From the IMG/VR virus record IMGVR_UViG_2529292923_000023: a stretch of 19,119 bases of DNA. The stretch is one strand, 5' to 3'. Source of the stretch: a virus. Taxonomy: Duplodnaviria > Heunggongvirae > Uroviricota > Caudoviricetes. Below, piece after piece: positions 7,129-19,119 of this stretch. The position numbers and the translations under genes were made by a program. Positions within the stretch are counted from its first letter, which is position 1, and every line of letters begins with the position of its first letter. The notes beneath the pieces are model-generated. The model saw only the letters and a program-made list of their open reading frames with translations. It was not told the origin of the DNA and ran no database searches.

Positions 7129-9871
7129 TCTTATCCGTCAGGTTATCAGTGCGTCTGAAAACAACTGGCCTCATGTGCTGGGCTGCCTGAACATAAATGT
7201 CCCTGACTCTCCGCGCCGTCATGCTCCCTGCCCTGCATGTGGGGGCAAAGATCGATTCCGGTTCGATGACAACGGGCGCGGTAGCTTCATCTGTAATCAG
7301 TGCGGCGCTGGTGATGGGCTGGATTTAATTAAACGCGTAAATAACTGCGACACAACAGAGGCGGCGCTGCTTGCCGCTGATGTTCTGGGTATTGATTACC
7401 GGACAACGGAAACACCAGAAGCCACCAGCCAGAAACGGGAACAACTGGAAACCGAGCGCCAGCAACGCGAACAGGAGCGCCTGAAAAGGGCGGAGAAGGA
7501 CGAACAACAAAGACGGGATACGTTTTCCCGTCAGTTTGATGACATGCGCAGAAAGGCTGTAAACGGCAAATCTGATTATCTGGTTGCGAAAGGGGTAGGT
7601 GATTTTACATTCCCCGTGTTGCCCGATGGATCTCTGTTGCTGGCGCTGGTGGATAAATCCGGCGCAGTCACAGCAGCACAGACTATTACCTCACATGGTG
7701 AAAAAAGACTCCTGACAGGTTCAGCAAAGCGGGGGGCATATCACGCCATAAACGCACCAGAAACAACACAGAGCATCTTAATCGCAGAAGGGCTGGCAAC
7801 GGCATTATCTGCCCATTTAATTCGTCCAGAGGCGCTGACAGTGGCGGCGATTGATGCCGGGAACCTGTTATATGTCGCCCAGGTACTGCGGGATAAATTT
7901 CCTTCAGCACAAATCATCATTGCTGCGGATAACGACCACAGCGAAGGAAGACAAAACACGGGGAGAATAGCAGCAGAAAAAGCAGCTTTATCTGTTTCTG
8001 GATGGGTGGCATTACCCCCGACAGGTCACAAAGCAGACTGGAATGATTACCACCAAAAACACGGCATTAAATGCGCCACAGAAGCGTTCAATAAGTCAAT
8101 GTACCAACCACAGGGTAATGGCGTGAAACAGGAGCCACAGACCATTGAGGGAAGCGATTTTAAGGTTATGGATACCGACCCACTGAAACCAAGAATAGAA
8201 AGCCGCGAGGATGGTATTTATTGGGTATCTCCGAGAGCTGACAGCCAGAGTGGAGAAATCATCAATAACGAAAGCTGGTTATGTTCTCCGTTAAGCGTTA
8301 TCGGTACTGGCAGAGACGATAAAGACCAGTATCTCATTCTTCGCTGGCTGTCGTTTGGTTCTGAAACGCCGACAACCGCTGCCATTCCACTGGCTGATAT
8401 TGGTGAACGTGAAGGATGGCGCACACTTAAAGCTGGTGGGGTAAATGTCACGACCAAAAGCAGCCTCAGAGCAATACTGGCAGACTGGCTACAACGCAGT
8501 GGCTCTCGTGAATTGTGGCGTGTTGCTCATGCCACTGGCTGGCAATGCGGAGCGTACATCATGCCTGATGGGGAAATCATCGGAACACCTGAAAATCCTG
8601 TGCTGTTCAGCGGGAGAAGCTCAGCCGCAGCCGGATATACCGTCTCAGGGAGCGCGCAAAGCTGGCGTGATAACGTGGCGCGTCTGGCCTTTGGTAACTA
8701 TTCAATGATGACCGGGATCGGCGCAGCACTGGCAGCACCATTGATTGGGCTGGTGGGCGCTGACGGGTTCGGCATTCATTTCTATGAGCAGTCGAGCGCA
8801 GGTAAGACCACCACGGCAAACGTGGCGAGCAGCTTATACGGCAACCCTGATTTACTGCGGCTGACGTGGTACGGAACCGCGCTGGGGCTGGCAAATGAGG
8901 CCGCCGCCCACAATGACGGACTAATGCCGCTTGATGAAGTTGGTCAGGGCGCTGATCCTGTCAGCGTTTCACAGTCTGCCTATGCGTTATTTAACGGTGT
9001 AGGGAAACTGCAAGGCGCTAAAGATGGTGGAAACCGGGATCTAAAACGCTGGCGTACAGTGGCAATCAGCACCGGAGAAATGGATTTAGAAACATTTATC
9101 GCTACTTCCGGGCGAAAAACCAAAGCCGGGCAACTGGTGCGACTGCTGAATATTCCGTTGAGTAAAGCAGTACGCTTTCACGATTACCAGAACGGAAAAC
9201 AGCACGCAGACGCACTGAAAGACGCTTACCAGCATCACCATGGCGCAGCCGGGCGTGAGTGGATTAAATGGCTGGCAGACCACCAGCAACAGGCTATTAA
9301 AACTGTTCGTGATTGCGAAAGCAGATGGAGAAGCCTGATCCCACCCGATTATGGTGAGCAGGTTCACCGTGTAGCCGCGCGATTTGCCATTCTGGAGGCC
9401 GCATTGTTGTTAGGCGAGGTTGTAACAGGCTGGGATGCTCAGACATGCCGTGATGCGATACAGCACAGCTATAACGCATGGTTGCGCGAGTTCGGCACAG
9501 GTAACAAAGAGCATCAGCAGATTATTGAACAAACGGAGGCATTTCTTAATGCCTATGGGCTTAGCCGTTTTGCACCATTTCCATACAGCCCGGCAGATTT
9601 GCCCATCAAAGATTTAGCCGGATACCGTCAGCGTGGAGAACATGACGAAAGCCCAATGATTTTCTACACATTCCCGGCCACATTTGAAAAGGAGATCGCA
9701 TGTGGTTTCAACGCAAAACAGTTTGCTGAAGTGTTGAAAAAAGCCGGGATGCTAACCCCACCAAACAGCGGTCGTGGATACCAAAGAAAATCACCACGTA
9801 TTCAGGGACGACAAATAAACGTTTATGTACTCAATTACCAGCCAGGAGATTATAACTCATCTGAAGAATGA
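7115..9871 (+). CDS. P4 alpha-like primase-helicase (zinc-ribbon + Toprim + DUF927/D5-type P-loop NTPase)
   Basis: 918 aa from ATG 7115 (the ORF-track start at 7112 is a GTG). N-terminal CPACGG...CNQCG zinc-binding motif. Toprim-like acidic motifs (IAEGLATA; IIIAADNDH). Walker A (SSAGKTTTANV) and Walker B-like (LMPLDEVG) in the C-terminal half. An iteron-type origin lies directly downstream. Confidence 0.9.
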   Translation: MRNIDLIRQVISASENNWPHVLGCLNINVPDSPRRHAPCPACGGKDRFRFDDNGRGSFICNQCGAGDGLDLIKRVNNCDTTEAALLAADVLGIDYRTTETPEATSQKREQLETERQQREQERLKRAEKDEQQRRDTFSRQFDDMRRKAVNGKSDYLVAKGVGDFTFPVLPDGSLLLALVDKSGAVTAAQTITSHGEKRLLTGSAKRGAYHAINAPETTQSILIAEGLATALSAHLIRPEALTVAAIDAGNLLYVAQVLRDKFPSAQIIIAADNDHSEGRQNTGRIAAEKAALSVSGWVALPPTGHKADWNDYHQKHGIKCATEAFNKSMYQPQGNGVKQEPQTIEGSDFKVMDTDPLKPRIESREDGIYWVSPRADSQSGEIINNESWLCSPLSVIGTGRDDKDQYLILRWLSFGSETPTTAAIPLADIGEREGWRTLKAGGVNVTTKSSLRAILADWLQRSGSRELWRVAHATGWQCGAYIMPDGEIIGTPENPVLFSGRSSAAAGYTVSGSAQSWRDNVARLAFGNYSMMTGIGAALAAPLIGLVGADGFGIHFYEQSSAGKTTTANVASSLYGNPDLLRLTWYGTALGLANEAAAHNDGLMPLDEVGQGADPVSVSQSAYALFNGVGKLQGAKDGGNRDLKRWRTVAISTGEMDLETFIATSGRKTKAGQLVRLLNIPLSKAVRFHDYQNGKQHADALKDAYQHHHGAAGREWIKWLADHQQQAIKTVRDCESRWRSLIPPDYGEQVHRVAARFAILEAALLLGEVVTGWDAQTCRDAIQHSYNAWLREFGTGNKEHQQIIEQTEAFLNAYGLSRFAPFPYSPADLPIKDLAGYRQRGEHDESPMIFYTFPATFEKEIACGFNAKQFAEVLKKAGMLTPPNSGRGYQRKSPRIQGRQINVYVLNYQPGDYNSSEE

Positions 9872-9893
9872 GCTTCTTCATGTGCGTAGAAAA

Positions 9894-10007
9894 GGTGTTG
9901 GTTCAGTTGGTTCAGTTGGTTCAATTTGTAAAGAGTATTGTTTTATAAGGATTTTATTCTTTTTATTGAACCAACACTGAACCAACAACACGGTATTTTG
10001 AACCAAC
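9894..10007. repeat. Iteron cluster 1 (putative ori): 3 tandem GTTGGTTCA (9897-9923), AT-rich spacer, 3 TGAACCAAC (9967-9975, 9978-9986, 9999-10007)
   Basis: Direct reading of the repeats; classic iteron/AT-rich unwinding-element architecture immediately 3' of the primase-helicase gene. Confidence 0.75.
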
Positions 10008-10327
10008 ACAATGTGACTGAATTGATGCGCACAACACCTGGCTGGCATCAGAGAGTGTTTTACGAGACTTTCGTAAAATCCTGTGTACAAGGGCGTGACG
10101 TTTTTGAAAGTGAGCACTACGAAATTTTCGTAGTTCAAAAAACAGCCTCTGAGAAGTTGTTATGCCTGTTCAGCAAACCATCCGCATAGCTGATCGCGAA
10201 TCAAATTACCAATGGAGCCAGAAGCAAGGGCAGAACTGAAAAGCGCCTGCCGTGAAGAGTAATGCGATACCATAAATATAGTTTTTAGAGTCCATAAAAA
10301 ACCTGTCAAAACCTGACACACAGAACG

Positions 10328-10360
10328 ATGCCACCAGCTACTGAGCGGTGGCATTTTTTT
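10328..10360 (+). terminator. Rho-independent terminator (likely ends the primase/ori transcript)
   Basis: ATGCCACC-agctactgagc-GGTGGCAT stem followed by TTTTTTT. Confidence 0.6.
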
Positions 10361-10422
10361 GTGCTATTTGTTTCATATTTTGCAATTACGATGATGAATA
10401 TTGCGATTTGTGAAACCATAAT

Positions 10423-10442
10423 AACTGTTGTTTTATACAGTT
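10423..10442. promoter_or_regulatory. LexA-like SOS box (AACTGTTGTTTTATACAGTT) overlapping the putative promoter of the downstream cassette
   Basis: CTGT-N8-ACAG with AT-rich spacer and the same symmetric AACTGT/ACAGTT flanks as the dinD box at 18095-18114; sits 14 bp upstream of the 53-aa ORF start, just after the terminator. Confidence 0.4.
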
Positions 10443-10455
10443 CTAAGGGGGCGTT

Positions 10456-10617
10456 ATGGCTATTTCAGTAAAGCCGGTATTGATAAGTGAGAAGCAAATG
10501 GAAGCGATAAAGAAAATTCAGGAAGAGCAGCGTAAAAAATCAGGAATTGGAGTAGCGCCAACTCTGCATGAAATTGCACGAGGGTTAATAGATAAGGCGC
10601 TGGCAGGCTGTATGTGA
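10456..10617 (+). CDS. Small protein (53 aa), possible ribbon-helix-helix (Arc/CopG-like) regulator or antitoxin; below the ORF-track size cutoff
   Basis: AAGGGGG Shine-Dalgarno 5 nt upstream of ATG. Predicted beta-strand (PVLIS), helix (EKQMEAIKKIQEEQ), Gly turn, helix (TLHEIARGLIDKAL) pattern. First gene of the cassette. Confidence 0.45.
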   Translation: MAISVKPVLISEKQMEAIKKIQEEQRKKSGIGVAPTLHEIARGLIDKALAGCM

Positions 10618-10633
10618 AAATGGATGGCATCGC

Positions 10634-11095
10634 ATGGAACTAAAATTTATTGATAACCCTGTGCGATTACAGGCCTTTCTTAACGAGCCAGGCAATACCG
10701 AAAATATTGTTGAGCCGGGGCACACGTACTACATCAAGCCTGATGCGGTATATCTCGGCATCTACGAAGGATTAGTGCTGGCTGGCGTTCATGAAGTGCG
10801 TAACTTCTGGCATAGCGTTGTTGAATGCCATGCGGTGTACGACCCCGGATTCCGTGGTGAATATGCACTGCAAGGGCATCGATTATTCTGCAAATGGCTT
10901 CTCGAAAACTCACCATTCCTTAACAGCATCACCATGGTTCCTGACACCACCAAATACGGACGGGCAATTATCCGTTTGCTTGGCGCTACCCGTGTTGGTC
11001 ACCTTGATGATGCTTATATCAGATGTGGTAAACCCGTCGGCGTAACGCTTTATCAGTTAACTCGGCAACAATATAAGGAATTCAGCGAATGTTAA
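10634..11095 (+). CDS. Hypothetical protein (153 aa), Cys/His-containing, unknown function
   Basis: ORF 16 bp after the 53-aa gene; overlaps the next gene start (coupled); no recognisable motif. Confidence 0.6.
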   Translation: MELKFIDNPVRLQAFLNEPGNTENIVEPGHTYYIKPDAVYLGIYEGLVLAGVHEVRNFWHSVVECHAVYDPGFRGEYALQGHRLFCKWLLENSPFLNSITMVPDTTKYGRAIIRLLGATRVGHLDDAYIRCGKPVGVTLYQLTRQQYKEFSEC

Positions 11096-11766
11096 TTACC
11101 CATATAGCTCATAAACATCTCAATCGTGCCGTATACGAAAAAGGCGGTGATGGTGGTGCCTCTAAAGCTCAGGCGAAGGCCCAGCAGCAGGCAATTGATT
11201 TGCAGCGCGAGCAGTGGAATACGGTGATGAATAATCTCAAGCCGTATGCAGAAGTCGGATTGCCTGCTTTACAACAACTGCAAGGACTGATGACTCTGGA
11301 AGGGCAGAATAAAGCCGCGAATGATTTCTTTGGTTCTGGTTTATATAAAACACAGGCAGATCAGGCCCGTTATCAGAACCTTGTCTCAGCAGAAGCTACC
11401 GGGGGGCTTGGCTCAACAGCTACCAGTAACCAGTTATCTTCCATTGCGCCCATGCTTTATAACAATTGGCTCAGTGGGCAAATGCAAAATTATGGAAACC
11501 TGCTAAATGTCGGGATGAATGCGGCATCAGGGCAGGCAACGGCAGGGCAAAACTACGCCAATAATACCGGACAACTCTTGCAGGGGCTTGGCGCTATTCG
11601 TGCAGGTCAGGCGCAGCAGCCATCCAGTCTTGCGCGTGGTATTGGTGGGGCAGCATCAGGCGCTTTAGCGGGTGCGCAACTTGGTTCCGTTGTTCCTGGA
11701 ATAGGAACTGCGGCCGGCGCTATTGGTGGTGGGCTTATTGGTCTTGTTGGGGGGCTTGGATTCTAA
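11089..11766 (+). CDS. Hypothetical Gln/Ala/Gly-rich protein (225 aa) with glycine-zipper C-terminus; possible phage ejection/internal virion protein (P22 gp7-like by size and position)
   Basis: No cysteine; low-complexity Q/A/N/G composition; C-terminal GxxxG-rich hydrophobic tail (GAIGGGLIGLVGGLGF); translationally coupled to neighbours. Confidence 0.65.
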   Translation: MLITHIAHKHLNRAVYEKGGDGGASKAQAKAQQQAIDLQREQWNTVMNNLKPYAEVGLPALQQLQGLMTLEGQNKAANDFFGSGLYKTQADQARYQNLVSAEATGGLGSTATSNQLSSIAPMLYNNWLSGQMQNYGNLLNVGMNAASGQATAGQNYANNTGQLLQGLGAIRAGQAQQPSSLARGIGGAASGALAGAQLGSVVPGIGTAAGAIGGGLIGLVGGLGF

Positions 11767-13187
11767 TGGCGACATGGCAACTTGGCGGGCTGCCTAGCAT
11801 GGCACCGCAAAATGATAATGCTCCTCGTTCTTCCGTTCCTCAGCCTGTGCAGTATCAGCAGCAGCCAAACGTAGGTTTAATGGCGCTACAGGGGCTAAGA
11901 GGCGTTGCTGAGATTAATCAGCAGGCACGTCAACAACAGCGTAAATCAGAGTTTCAGAAAGCATATGCCGGGGCTTTTGAGTCTGGAGACAGAAACAAAA
12001 TGCGCAGTCTTATTTCTGAGTATCCAGAAGAATTTGAAAGCGTTCAGAAAGGGATGGGCTTTATTGATGACGACCAGAGAAATTCTATTGGTCATCTTGC
12101 GACTAGTGCTCAAATCGCATCTTCGCTCGGAACTGGGGCATTTGGAAAATTCATAGCAGATAACGAAGATGAAATGCGTCGCTTGGGAATTTCTCCTGAG
12201 TCTGTTGCCGAAATGCATGTTAATGATCCACAGGGATTCCAGCGGCTTGCTGGTAGTATGGCACTGTTTTCTCTCGGTCATGAGAAGTATTTCGATATCA
12301 AAGATCAAATGGAAGGTCGGGATATTGAGCGAGGCAGGCTGGCAGAGACAATCCGCAGCAATCAGGCTGGCGAAGCACTTCAGGCGAGAGGGCAGGATAT
12401 TAGCCGAGCAAATGCGTTAACGTCAGCATATGCACCAACAGCAGCAATGCAGAATTACAATCAGTACGCTCAAATGTTAAAGGCGGATCCAGAGGGGGCG
12501 GCGGCATTTGCGGCAGCGGCTGGAATTAATACAAACGCCAAAAAATTAATGAGTGTTAGAGAAAACGATGATGGCACTGTCACAAAATACTACACAGACG
12601 GAAGTGAAGAGCAGGGAAAACTAAACCAGCCAATATCTGGAGATGGGTTTCGTCCAATAGCTTTGCCAACAGCCCAAAAGATCATGGAAAAGTCGCCAGA
12701 AGGGGCTAAAAAAGCTGCTGGATTTGCATACAGGGTTAGGGATGCTCTTGATTCAATAGATACACTGAAAGACCAGCTTAGCCCACAGCGAGTGGCGATC
12801 ATTAATAATGCTTTGGGTAATGGGACGCTGGCTAACTTAACGCTCAGCCCAACAGAGCAGCAATACGTTGTTAATGCTAATGACGCAATAATGGCAATAC
12901 TCCGTCAGGAAACAGGGGCAGCTATCGTACCTGCTGAAATGTCAAAATATTATCAAATGTATTTCCCTCAGCCTGGCGACTCCACAAAAACCATTGATAC
13001 CAAGCGCCGGAAGATGGAAAACCAGTTCAATTCGCTGAAAGCTGCTTCTGGTCGAGCTTATGATGCTTTGCGGGTTATTTCAGCAGTTGACAGAGGAACG
13101 TCTTCTTCGTCGCAGACATTGCCGCAATCTGAGCAGGTATCACAGCCAGCAGCCAGCAGTAACTTTTCTTCACTATGGGGTGATTAA
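11766..13187 (+). CDS. Hypothetical Gln/Ala-rich protein (473 aa); possible phage ejection/internal virion protein (P22 gp20-like by size and position)
   Basis: TAATG start overlap; no cysteine in 473 residues; Q-rich N-terminus; long ORF with good codon usage. Confidence 0.7.
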   Translation: MATWQLGGLPSMAPQNDNAPRSSVPQPVQYQQQPNVGLMALQGLRGVAEINQQARQQQRKSEFQKAYAGAFESGDRNKMRSLISEYPEEFESVQKGMGFIDDDQRNSIGHLATSAQIASSLGTGAFGKFIADNEDEMRRLGISPESVAEMHVNDPQGFQRLAGSMALFSLGHEKYFDIKDQMEGRDIERGRLAETIRSNQAGEALQARGQDISRANALTSAYAPTAAMQNYNQYAQMLKADPEGAAAFAAAAGINTNAKKLMSVRENDDGTVTKYYTDGSEEQGKLNQPISGDGFRPIALPTAQKIMEKSPEGAKKAAGFAYRVRDALDSIDTLKDQLSPQRVAIINNALGNGTLANLTLSPTEQQYVVNANDAIMAILRQETGAAIVPAEMSKYYQMYFPQPGDSTKTIDTKRRKMENQFNSLKAASGRAYDALRVISAVDRGTSSSSQTLPQSEQVSQPAASSNFSSLWGD

Positions 13188-15292
13188 TGGCTAAAGCATG
13201 GAAAGATGTTATCGCCTCTCCACAGTATCAGGCGTTAGCACCAGAACAAAAAGCGCAGGCTCAGGAGCAATACTTCAATGAAGTCGTTGCCCCGCAAGCC
13301 GGAGAAAGTGTAGAGCAGGCTAAGCAGGCTTTTTATGCTGCCTATCCACTACCATCAACGAATGAAATAGACCGATCCCAATCAGCAACTCAAAATATTC
13401 AACATACATCATCTGATAATTCTCTTGCGTCAGGGTATGCAAAGTTAGCTACTCAGCAAAGAGAGGGGCTTGAGCGTTCAGCAGAACAGGGAGCCAGTCT
13501 TGGGGCTGCGATGCGCGATGCTATAACAGGCGAAAGCCGAATGACTTCAGAGATGGAGAGACTGCAAAATGTCGCCTCTGCCCCAGAATTGAACTCACTA
13601 AGCATGGATGCCCTAAAGGCTGGATGGTCCCAACTTTTCGGCTCTGACGCGTCTCAGGAAAAGATTCTTCAGGGAATGGGGGCGACATTAAGGCAGGATG
13701 AGAAGGGGAATACTATCGTTTCTCTGCCATCAGGTGATTATGCCCTGAACAAGCCGGGTTTATCACCGCAAGACCTGACTTCGTTTCTTGCTAATGCGTT
13801 GGCGTTTACACCAGCGGGCAGGGCTGGAACGGTGCTTGGTGCCATAGGAAAATCAGCAGCTACAGATTTAGCACTACAGGGAGCCACCAGCCTTGCTGGT
13901 GGAGAAGATATTGATCCGTTACAAACGGTAATTTCTGCTGGCATTGGTGGTATTGGTAAGGGGCTGGAAAATACAGCGAGTGCGGTTTCGAGGGCTGTTC
14001 GTGGTGATATGTCGCCTGAAGCAAAGGCTGCTGTCGACTTTGCATCGGAAAGAAATCTGCCGTTAATGACCAGTGACATGCTGAAAGATAAAACCTTTAT
14101 GCAGAGTCAGGCTCAGACATTAGGCGAAAGAGTTCCTTTTTTTGGAACCGGTAAGAATCGGCTGAATCAACAACAAGCACGAGAAAATTTAGTCAGAACA
14201 TTTAGCGATGGTCTGGGTGGCATTTCTGATAAACAGCTTTATGAATCTGCGACTAAAGGGCAACAAAAATTCATTGAGGCAGCAGGAAAGCGATATAACC
14301 GCATAATTGACGCTATGGGGGATACCCCTGTCGATCTCTCAAACACGGTAAAAGCTATCGACAATCAGATTGCCGTGTTAAGCCGCCCGGGCAAATCTCA
14401 GGATAGAGCCGCGGTAAAAGTCTTGCAGCAATTTAAAGACGATATCACCAGCGGACCAAATGACCTGCGCCTGGCGAGGGAAAACAGAACCGATCTTCGA
14501 AAGCGATTTATTGCGTCATCTGACACTGTTGATAAAGATACGCTCCAGAAAGCCAGCGATATTATCTACAAGGCATATACGGCGGATATGAAAAAAGCCG
14601 TAGCCAAAAATCTTGGAGCAGACGAAGCCATTAATATGGCAAGGGTTGATCGCTCATGGTCTAAATTCAATAACATGATGGGAAGAACGCGCGTTCAAAA
14701 GGCAATAGCCAGCGGCAAGGCCACGCCTGAGGATGTAACAAAACTCGTTTTTAGCCAAAGCCCATCAGAACGTTCTCAGCTTTACAGGCTTCTGGATGAC
14801 AATGGTAGGCAAAACGCACGAGCAGCCATAGTTCAGAATGCTGTAGATAAGGCGACTGATCCGTCTGGAAATATCAGTGTTGAGAAGTTTATTAATGCGT
14901 TACACCGGAACAGGAAGCAATCAGCAACTTTCTTTAAAGGCGTACATGGGAAGGAACTGGACGGCGTTATTAAATACCTCAACGATACAAGACACGCGGC
15001 AAAAGCGAACGTTCAAAACTTAAATGGTCAGCAGCTTTATGGATTGTTAGTTGGTGGTGGCATCATAAACGCAGCAGTATTAGCGGGGATGCTAAAAACG
15101 GCTGCGTTTGTTGTTCCTGCTGCTGGTGCCGTAGGCGGAGCAGCGAAGGCATACGAAACCCCTGTTATACGAAATGCCTTGTTACGTCTGGCAAATACGC
15201 CAAAAGGTAGCACAGCATATGACAGAGCGATCAGTACGGTCACACAATCGCTCACCAGAGTCGCACAGGCATCACAAAAAGAAGCTCAATAA
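13187..15292 (+). CDS. Hypothetical Gln/Ala-rich protein (701 aa) with hydrophobic Gly/Ala-rich C-terminal segment; possible phage ejection/internal virion protein (P22 gp16-like by size and position)
   Basis: TAATG start overlap; no cysteine in 701 residues; C-terminal LLVGGGIINAAVLAGMLKTAAFVVPAAGAVGGAAKAY membrane-like segment. Confidence 0.75.
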   Translation: MAKAWKDVIASPQYQALAPEQKAQAQEQYFNEVVAPQAGESVEQAKQAFYAAYPLPSTNEIDRSQSATQNIQHTSSDNSLASGYAKLATQQREGLERSAEQGASLGAAMRDAITGESRMTSEMERLQNVASAPELNSLSMDALKAGWSQLFGSDASQEKILQGMGATLRQDEKGNTIVSLPSGDYALNKPGLSPQDLTSFLANALAFTPAGRAGTVLGAIGKSAATDLALQGATSLAGGEDIDPLQTVISAGIGGIGKGLENTASAVSRAVRGDMSPEAKAAVDFASERNLPLMTSDMLKDKTFMQSQAQTLGERVPFFGTGKNRLNQQQARENLVRTFSDGLGGISDKQLYESATKGQQKFIEAAGKRYNRIIDAMGDTPVDLSNTVKAIDNQIAVLSRPGKSQDRAAVKVLQQFKDDITSGPNDLRLARENRTDLRKRFIASSDTVDKDTLQKASDIIYKAYTADMKKAVAKNLGADEAINMARVDRSWSKFNNMMGRTRVQKAIASGKATPEDVTKLVFSQSPSERSQLYRLLDDNGRQNARAAIVQNAVDKATDPSGNISVEKFINALHRNRKQSATFFKGVHGKELDGVIKYLNDTRHAAKANVQNLNGQQLYGLLVGGGIINAAVLAGMLKTAAFVVPAAGAVGGAAKAYETPVIRNALLRLANTPKGSTAYDRAISTVTQSLTRVAQASQKEAQ

Positions 15293-15296
15293 CTGG

Positions 15297-15319
15297 TTAG
15301 CCATGGATGGCTAATTTTT
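15297..15319. terminator. Hairpin terminator between convergent genes (TTAGCC-atggat-GGCTAA + TTTTT)
   Basis: 6-bp stem, 6-nt loop, T-run on + strand; lies between the stop of the 701-aa gene and the stop of the minus-strand membrane gene. Confidence 0.45.
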
Positions 15320-15661
15320 GTTCTTTGCTCTCATCCATAGGTAAAGAAGGGAAAGAACAAGACAAAAAACAGAGAATAGATAACCTACCTCATATGGTGC
15401 GCCAAAAAAATTAGCCATTGATACGGGCAAAAAAGCTGAAGCGATCAAAATTGAAAGGCAAAAAATAAGCCCAGTAATATAGTTTATTAAATTCTTAAAT
15501 GAGAAACGTTTTGCTTGATTTACGGTCTTAACGAACGATCGCTTAACGACGGATAAAAGCAAATAGATGGCGACAGTTGCTAATGCCCCTTTCCACCAGT
15601 CTGGATATAGTTTTGCGACAATCAGACCAAGGAAAACCATGATGACAGCCTGAGCATTCAC
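15311..15661 (-). CDS. AT-rich polytopic small membrane protein (about 116 aa from GTG at 15661; the ORF allows an upstream ATG at 15730)
   Basis: Strong AAGGGAGGG Shine-Dalgarno 5 nt upstream of the GTG at 15659-15661; three to four hydrophobic helices; markedly AT-rich relative to neighbours; convergent with the cassette. Confidence 0.55.
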   Translation of the reverse strand: MNAQAVIMVFLGLIVAKLYPDWWKGALATVAIYLLLSVVKRSFVKTVNQAKRFSFKNLINYITGLIFCLSILIASAFLPVSMANFFGAPYEVGYLFSVFCLVLSLLYLWMRAKNKN

Positions 15662-17179: not shown

Positions 17180-17467
17180 ATGATAAAGGACAGGAAAGCT
17201 GAAGAGCTGGAGTCAAAAGGGCTATACCGGAGAGCTGCCGCACGATGGGCAGAAGTCATGATGCTGGCAGATGGCGATAAAGAACGTGAACATGCAGCAA
17301 ACAGACGCTCTGAATGTATCCGTAAGGCGGCACGCCCACCAGCAACTACAGACAGATTCGGAGATTTAAGACAGGCAGTTAAGCGGACTCATTCGGCTCT
17401 TGGTATGGATGAGGAAGCGAGAGGGTACTTCAGGCGTTATCGCGATAAAGATTGCCAGAGACAGTAA
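17180..17467 (+). CDS. PerC-family transcriptional regulator-like protein (95 aa)
   Basis: N-terminal AEELESKGLYRRAAARWAEV matches the PerC/Pch family signature (ELE.KGLWRRAA.RW); GAGAGG Shine-Dalgarno; a TATAAT hexamer at 17161-17166 just downstream of the iterons. Confidence 0.65.
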   Translation: MIKDRKAEELESKGLYRRAAARWAEVMMLADGDKEREHAANRRSECIRKAARPPATTDRFGDLRQAVKRTHSALGMDEEARGYFRRYRDKDCQRQ

Positions 17468-18094: not shown

Positions 18095-18114
18095 AACTGT
18101 ATATAAACACAGTT
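18095..18114. promoter_or_regulatory. LexA (SOS) box AACTGTATATAAACACAGTT upstream of the dinD-like gene
   Basis: Perfect CTGT-N8-ACAG with AT spacer matching the LexA consensus TACTGTATATATATACAGTA; overlaps a TATAAA -10-like hexamer; about 45 bp upstream of the ATG. Confidence 0.8.
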
Positions 18115-18157
18115 GTAGACTTACTTTCCTTGCAATCGATATCACATGGAGTGGGCA

Positions 18158-19119
<962 letters not shown>

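Follow-up and report, generated by a model that had tools for sequence, protein, structure and literature searches.

The stretch of DNA analyzed here, 19,119 bp long and referred to throughout as the window, carries an integrative island that lies between yicC and dinD in Escherichia coli (locus L002). The island encodes an integrase, an AlpA-like HTH protein, an AntA/AntB antirepressor, an Ash-family product, several small open reading frames (ORFs), and a 919-aa zinc-ribbon/TOPRIM/DUF927 primase, whose gene is followed by a terminator stem at 10337-10352. Pfam and PHROG annotation revealed no capsid or terminase gene in the window, where several ORFs have no assigned function. We describe the island as satellite-like, and a satellite lifestyle is what its sequence predicts. 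The features that matter for the regulation of its next operon are as follows.

10337..10361, plus strand: intrinsic terminator of the upstream TOPRIM-DUF927 primase operon, a GC-rich stem (10337-10352) and then a T run
10370..10416, no strand assigned: imperfect inverted repeat GTTTCATATTTTGCAAT / ATTGCGATTTGTGAAAC, arranged as 17 nt-N13-17 nt
10394..10399, plus strand: -35-like hexamer ATGAAT, with 3/6 matches, 17 bp 5' of the -10 hexamer
10417..10422, plus strand: predicted -10 hexamer CATAAT, placed by an alignment of relatives
10423..10442, no strand assigned: candidate LexA (SOS) box AACTGTTGTTTTATACAGTT, at about -6 to +14 of the predicted promoter
10445..10451, plus strand: Shine-Dalgarno-like AAGGGGG for the first gene, read from the sequence
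10456..10617, plus strand: first gene, encoding a 53-aa ribbon-helix-helix protein, a predicted DNA-binding regulator
10634..11095, plus strand: DUF2824 protein (PF11039, E 1.5e-61; phrog_651, head morphogenesis)
11089..11766, plus strand: P22 gp7-like ejection protein (PF25688, E 6.6e-73)
11766..13187, plus strand: P22 gp20-like ejection protein, Inj_translocase (PF16928, E 3.1e-58)
13187..15292, plus strand: P22 gp16-like DNA transfer protein with a transglycosylase region (phrog_770, 29117, 29864)
15295..15326, plus strand: intrinsic terminator closing the operon, a nine-pair stem (15295-15316) and then a T run

The operon genes are tightly packed between the two terminators, and the products of the last four are virion-type proteins by homology only (to P22 gp7, gp20, and gp16 and to DUF2824 proteins). 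The first-pass annotation had placed a LexA-like box 14 bp before the first gene of an ejection-protein cassette. The distance is correct, as the ATG of that ORF stands at 10456; the gene itself does not encode an ejection protein, however, but the 53-aa ribbon-helix-helix protein. Homologs of the gp16-like protein in relatives carry the Pfam domains SLT and Phage_P22_gp16. No gp20 of the phage collection reaches 60% identity with the island gp20 (the nearest, at 52%, is that of the APSE phages of Hamiltonella), and the island gene stands beside a DUF2824 gene with approximately 90% DNA identity to the E. coli P22-like phages Kapi1, Louie, and 720R6, which indicates a mosaic cassette. Shorter cassettes, which contain the small ORF, gp20, and gp16 and lack DUF2824 and gp7, occur in L016-L018, L029, and L031. 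Work on P22 has found that very different ejection proteins can take the place of the phage's own in assembly and injection, while gp16 and gp20 are required as a matched pair (PMC10461980); the cassettes reduced to gp20 and gp16 match this published requirement, in which gp7 is exchangeable (PMC10461980).

Both borders of the operon are well marked. In relatives, the hairpin and T run of the upstream terminator are kept, and this element is predicted to insulate the cassette promoter from transcription of the primase operon. With terminators on both sides, the cassette appears to be a self-contained unit, and the box-bearing promoter is its only evident driver. A simple sigma-70 consensus scan of 9800-10700 returned no promoter, the -35 hexamer falling under the threshold, but a "no promoter" reading was rejected because a -10 hexamer at a fixed spacing from the box is conserved across all relatives. 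Among 65 canonical-box promoters, 63 have TATAAT directly 5' of the box, and CTGT follows the hexamer after two bases; the Buttiauxella version is TATTAT. The -35 region has the weak form nTGAnn, of which the TGA at hexamer positions 2-4 is retained in most relatives, and a purine-rich GGAGG or GGGGG occupies the Shine-Dalgarno place in all of them. The window departs from its relatives in one respect: the T-to-C change at the first -10 position, giving CATAAT, is private to it and found in none of them. This substitution is probably promoter weakening, and, compared with TATAAT, it may leave the window's copy with low expression. Even the closest E. coli genome matches to 10330-10620 fall short of full identity, at 99.7%.

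The first-pass annotation had also described the box as overlapping a plausible -10 region. A plausible -10 is indeed present beside the box, but the two do not overlap, since CATAAT at 10417-10422 abuts it. An alternative hexamer within the box, TATACA, was considered and rejected because it would leave no 5' untranslated region (UTR) for the ribosome-binding site of the ribbon-helix-helix gene. As the -10 abuts the box, the box would cover the predicted transcription start, from about -6 to +14. Promoter and start are here placed by conservation. In Salmonella, LexA-dependent genes have boxes near the start codon that overlap the transcription start (PMC8072944), a pattern that the box position over the predicted start fits.

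The 20-mer at 10423-10442, AACTGTTGTTTTATACAGTT, contains an exact CTGT-N8-ACAG core at 10425-10440, as the first-pass annotation had read it. The same core occurs at one other place in the window (18097-18112). This second site, AACTGTATATAAACACAGTT at 18095-18114, lies 32 bp 5' of the dinD start codon and differs from the K-12 dinD box (PMC3009722) at a single position, 14, where C replaces T; the AACTGT/ACAGTT ends are, as had been claimed, common to both. By dinucleotide shuffling, the chance expectation for this core in the window is 0.20, and two matches arose in 2 of 200 shuffles. The dinD gene of the window (18146-19113 region) ends after 84 codons, and a minus-strand IS21-family IstB gene lies 3' of it at 18451-19113 (Pfam IstB_IS21, E 3e-101). 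The shortened gene and the adjoining IstB indicate that dinD was apparently interrupted by an insertion sequence.

To score the box, as had been suggested at the outset, we used a symmetrized Berg-von Hippel heterology index (HI) with a matrix of 18 validated K-12 LexA boxes (PMC3009722); this matrix was custom-built for the analysis, so that its scores should not be set directly against published HIs. AACTGTTGTTTTATACAGTT has an HI of 7.94, inside the validated range and between sulA (7.30) and cho (8.02) or lexA (8.09). In leave-one-out scoring, the 18 validated boxes span HI 2.0-17.0, among which AACTGTTGTTTTATACAGTT ranks approximately 11th of 19, while the dinD box of the window has an HI of 4.70 on the same 18-box matrix. 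Compared with the validated uvrB box, AACTGTTTTTTTATCCAGTA, 3 of 20 positions differ, and one of these changes is toward the consensus. The LexA operator consensus is TACTG(TA)5CAGTA, with a palindromic core CTG-N10-CAG (PMC6590174), and a search of the window for the full consensus with up to 3 mismatches gave no match. That null result is explained by the 6 mismatches of AACTGTTGTTTTATACAGTT at low-information positions, so that a matrix score is required. For orientation, the PSOSP study reports that K-12 candidate boxes form a low-HI mode with a peak at 7.34, on a matrix that differs from ours (PMC12527982). In the same study, the minimum HI of SOS-dependent prophages averages 7.53 (PMC12527982), a value similar to the 7.9 obtained here, though again the matrices differ.

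Sites of this quality are rare in both random and real sequence. In 3 Mb of first-order Markov sequence modeled on the window, there were 0 sites at HI 8 or below and one at HI 9. Approximately 1 Mb of real sequence yielded seven noncassette sites at HI 9.5 or below, namely, dinD, four sites that make up tandem boxes in two other satellites, and one further site. Within the sampled parts of the islands, no other site reached HI 11 or below, save one inside the gp20-like gene. This LexA-like sequence, TGCTGGATTTGCATACAGGG at 12716-12735 (HI 10.6), is found in E. coli-type relatives (L001, L003, and L031) and is absent from other genera. Considered as a second LexA site, it was set aside as probably due to chance, given its restriction to E. 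coli-type cassettes.

Related loci were collected from species-representative genomes, protein-based look-ups, viral contigs, and a metagenome scan. The boxes at the same promoter position fall into five lineages.

Escherichia: (A/G)ACTGTTGTTTTATACAGTT
Citrobacter and Leclercia: nnCTGTATCGTTATACAGTG
Type L025/26: TACTGTATCGTTATCCAGTG
Serratia: TACTGTGTCTATATACAGTT
Buttiauxella: ACCTGTATAAACATACAGAG

CTGT-N8-(A/C)CAG is thus found in islands of at least four other genera, while spacer and flanks diverge. Positions 3-6 (CTGT), 13-14 (AT), and 16-18 (CAG) are invariant in the five lineages, and positions 1, 2, 7-12, 19, and 20 vary. The sole change at position 15 is A to C in L025/26, which turns ACAG into CCAG, an ending common in validated boxes. 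Invariance is concentrated in the eight core positions relative to the twelve others (Fisher P = 0.003 over five lineages), and the number of nucleotide types per position is inversely related to LexA information content (Spearman rho = -0.66, P = 0.0014), the pattern expected under selection for LexA binding. Citrobacter-type boxes are weaker, at HI 10-13. All 54 sampled loci with P22-type cargo have a canonical box, although many of these loci are near-identical, and independent support therefore amounts to the five lineages. The island loci with P22 cargo all share the arrangement of terminator, promoter, box, and small ORF. Phage-type loci have no promoter, box, or small ORF at this place, and their DUF2824 gene comes straight after another coding sequence, which we interpret as that of the tail needle. 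A canonical box also accompanies non-P22 cargo, a 223-aa protein without an assigned function, in four loci.

Core, spacing, score, promoter position, and cross-genus conservation together support the operator proposed in the first-pass annotation. We put at about 75% the probability that AACTGTTGTTTTATACAGTT is a functional LexA operator placed on the start of a single sigma-70 promoter that drives the ejection operon of a satellite-like island. In sequence terms, AACTGTTGTTTTATACAGTT would be an ordinary member of the gammaproteobacterial SOS-box class. It is like the E. coli uvrB operator and the dinD operator AACTGTATATAAATACAGTT in its 20-bp architecture, AACTGT left arm, and HI range. 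It is unlike chromosomal E. coli SOS operators in that it is predicted to control a horizontally acquired operon of virion proteins and not a repair gene.

A second regulatory element appears to lie just upstream. The inverted repeat has arms at 10370-10386 and 10400-10416 that are 76% complementary, and it extends from about -59 to -13, across the -35 region. Its motifs TTTCA, TTGCAAT, TTGCG, and TGAAA are invariant or nearly so both in the clade that contains the window and in a second clade with other cargo, referred to here as clade B. The 53-aa protein is predicted to form a beta-strand and then two helices, and its fold resembles solved ribbon-helix-helix proteins; searches of Pfam, PHROGs, and PDB sequences with this protein found no match, and only the fold comparison was informative. 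Its putative DNA-reading strand, VKPVL, is likewise invariant in both clades. The box was therefore rejected as the operator of the ribbon-helix-helix protein, since the DNA-reading strand is invariant in clades without the box. Because VKPVL and the upstream repeat are conserved together in both clades, the repeat is the better operator candidate, which leaves the box for LexA. We consider the 17-N13-17 palindrome a putative operator of this protein or of some other regulator. Dual control is likely on these grounds, with LexA acting at the start site and the ribbon-helix-helix protein, possibly an autorepressor, acting over the -35 region. The palindrome and the ribbon-helix-helix gene also suggest that removal of LexA alone may not give full expression.

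This arrangement leads to the alternative that survives best. LexA might bind the box but serve as a secondary brake, while the palindrome over the -35 is the main switch, operated either by the product of the operon's first gene or by some other factor from the island or a helper; in that case, SOS alone would not suffice for expression. The palindrome motifs are kept in both clades, including relatives without a canonical LexA box, the ribbon-helix-helix fold of the first gene's product is typical of small operator-binding repressors, and the -35 is weak, all of which speak for such a switch. Nevertheless, sigma-70 could plausibly work unassisted from a near-consensus -10 at a 17-bp spacing, and the fact that every P22-cargo locus strictly keeps the LexA core implies a fitness value for LexA control. 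We regard this alternative as rather unlikely, if well within reason; it overlaps the preferred explanation and does not exclude a LexA operator.

Clade B provides a further view of what is constrained at this promoter. Its members have the same promoter and small ORF with different cargo, which includes SLT-bearing internal-virion-like proteins, a baseplate-hub-like protein, TerS-like genes, and a T7 gp14-like protein. For instance, cargo among L028, L030, L019, and L022 includes an 898-aa SLT protein and a 575-aa internal-virion-like protein, as well as a transglycosylase-bearing protein of 605 aa and a baseplate-hub-like protein with a TerS-like gene after it. At the box position, clade B carries CTGTATAAATATCAGG, which has a LexA-like left half and the form CTG-N9-CAG, one base short of the canonical spacing. 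CTGTATAAATATCAGG is well conserved in clade B (39 loci), and 11 further loci have clearly degenerate versions of the box (e.g., CTTCAT... and TTGT...AGAG). In L019-L024, L027, L040, and L101-L134, it comes directly after TATAAT-NN, approximately 25 nt 5' of the small ORF, and it resembles a LexA box minus one base that is fused to the ribosome-binding site. Conservation of the N9 element in clade B implies some constraint at this place beyond canonical LexA binding, for which the 5' UTR or ribosome-binding site, residual half-site binding, and another factor are all candidates. Canonical LexA control thus looks specific to the branch that contains the window. Strong tandem LexA boxes occur elsewhere in clade B satellites that have lost the box at the cassette promoter: L030 has a pair at 2906-2947 (HI 5.9 and 10.6), located between ssb and a 346-aa gene, and L109 has a pair at 262-303 (HI 4.7 and 7.6). 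The operon to which LexA is wired seems to differ within this element family.

The related, noncanonical sequence at the box position in clade B, together with the DNA-binding protein encoded directly 3' of the box, might also be taken to mean that the box is the operator of some other protein (the ribbon-helix-helix protein or a helper-phage repressor) and that its likeness to a LexA site is coincidental. We find this improbable, as VKPVL is invariant across clades while CTGT-N8-ACAG spacing is found in only one of them, per-position conservation agrees with the LexA matrix, and a site of such quality, judged against validated boxes, is expected to bind LexA in an enterobacterial cell.

A role for the element as RNA, either as a 5'-UTR hairpin or as a signal in the initial transcribed region, is less credible still. 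The box does lie in the predicted 5' UTR, a hairpin of 5-7 bp is possible, and clade B conserves an equivalent UTR sequence, but the 5' UTRs fold no more stably than shuffled sequences (z from -1.0 to +1.0), and the stem bases are fixed as CTGT/ACAG without covariation. Moreover, no stable fold is predicted for the clade B sequence (-1 kcal/mol), and L025/26 breaks one pair of the palindrome yet keeps a LexA-compatible CCAG, which argues for LexA and against a hairpin. Finally, AT-rich intergenic DNA does yield palindromes, and shuffles of the window occasionally contain two such cores, but a chance palindrome without function is just as hard to credit, when none as good was found in the 3 Mb of random sequence and several genera keep the site at this promoter position while the spacer diverges.

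If the box is a LexA operator, the operon would be controlled as follows. In undamaged cells, LexA on the box, at about -6 to +14, would block RNA polymerase. Upon DNA damage, activated RecA would promote LexA self-cleavage, and the operon would be transcribed. The same SOS signal would induce P22-like helper prophages, and this shared trigger would place the satellite's ejection proteins in the cell during helper procapsid assembly. LexA binding and SOS induction of the operon are predictions from its sequence, and induction may occur independently of a helper, as the first-pass annotation had implied. Incorporation of the operon's proteins into helper virions is likewise what such timing would allow.

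The nearest functional analog appears to be SaPI operon I of Staphylococcus aureus, a LexA-regulated packaging and capsid-remodeling operon of a satellite (Ubeda et al. 2007, as cited in PMC3152322 and PMC6739421). An island's virion-assembly operon is there experimentally shown to be under host LexA, as is here predicted, and it answers the same SOS signal as helper prophages, as we likewise propose. There are also differences: the SaPI host is Gram positive and has a different LexA motif, the SaPI cargo consists of TerS and capsid-size proteins, whereas ours consists of ejection proteins, and the genes, judging by annotation, do not appear to be homologous. Pfam and PHROG annotation of the operon detected P22-type ejection proteins only and none of the SaPI operon I functions. 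With a different LexA motif and apparently unrelated genes, the likeness is one of functional analogy and not of family membership.

LexA boxes are well known in prophage genes, such as the Gifsy dinI homologs and replication genes of Salmonella (PMC8072944). As with the SOS genes of temperate phages, a mobile element is here predicted to borrow host LexA as a damage sensor. In temperate phages, however, LexA usually gates lysogeny exit or early functions, while the proteins predicted to be gated here are late and structural in type. The island operon is like the E-protein module of P22-like phages in gene order and families (7, 20, 16, and the DUF2824 gene), and it is unlike that module in having its own promoter, LexA box, and ribbon-helix-helix gene. 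Our literature search, in a library covering few subscription journals, found no description of the island family or of satellites that carry ejection proteins, and neither a review of ejection proteins nor the SieA paper mentions satellites, islands, or LexA.

We tentatively propose, as a possibility that falls well short of an even chance, that these islands form an undescribed enterobacterial satellite family in which a promoter and ribbon-helix-helix module drives interchangeable, helper-matched DNA-delivery cassettes and of which the P22-type branch is LexA wired. The cassettes of this putative family would comprise P22-type gp7/gp20/gp16, T7 gp14-like, SLT-bearing internal virion, and baseplate-hub-like proteins. 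Perhaps divergent, coadapted gp20 and gp16 are loaded into helper procapsids when SOS induces the helper, and branches with other cargo might have lost canonical LexA control or moved it; both suggestions are equally tentative. SieA superinfection exclusion can be overcome via changes in gp16 and gp20 (PMC10461980), and the cassettes with gp20 and gp16 only, the divergent gp20, and the approximately 90%-identical DUF2824 gene fit the picture of ejection-protein exchange drawn for P22 (PMC10461980). If the proposal is true, a possible benefit is that satellite particles bypass SieA-type exclusion, whose targets are gp16 and gp20 (PMC10461980), and so enter helper lysogens. More speculatively, a satellite's own gp20/gp16 pair, present at helper induction, could alter the entry properties of particles.

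These possibilities have consequences beyond the locus itself. The module of promoter and small ORF is present in 501 of 5,426 complete E. coli genomes (approximately 9%). If LexA gates the operon, then the SOS regulon gains an island carried by approximately 9% of complete E. coli genomes, and DNA-damaging antibiotics would cause cells to make membrane-active, peptidoglycan-cutting phage ejection proteins. The operon would also be a Gram-negative counterpart to SaPI operon I, with satellites of unrelated descent making convergent use of the host damage sensor to synchronize virion-related genes with helper induction. The operon also points to a satellite family that has DNA-ejection proteins as its distinctive cargo, and it raises, in a testable form, the question of why a satellite would bring its own ejection proteins.

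Closely similar gene sets are found at other chromosomal sites, behind other integrases (e.g., at the thrW tRNA gene of strain ABU 83972). In ABU 83972 (L001), the island with the cassette module lies between tRNA-Thr and a truncated integrase remnant beside vat, and the thrW site of the related strain CFT073 (L146), when examined for the island, was empty. The two strains therefore provide a pair of occupied and empty sites for defining the island ends. A gene for a PerC-family transcriptional activator stands at the accessory end of the window's island, at 17180-17467 (Pfam PerC, E 3e-33), and such a gene is shared among the related islands L001, L002, and L031.
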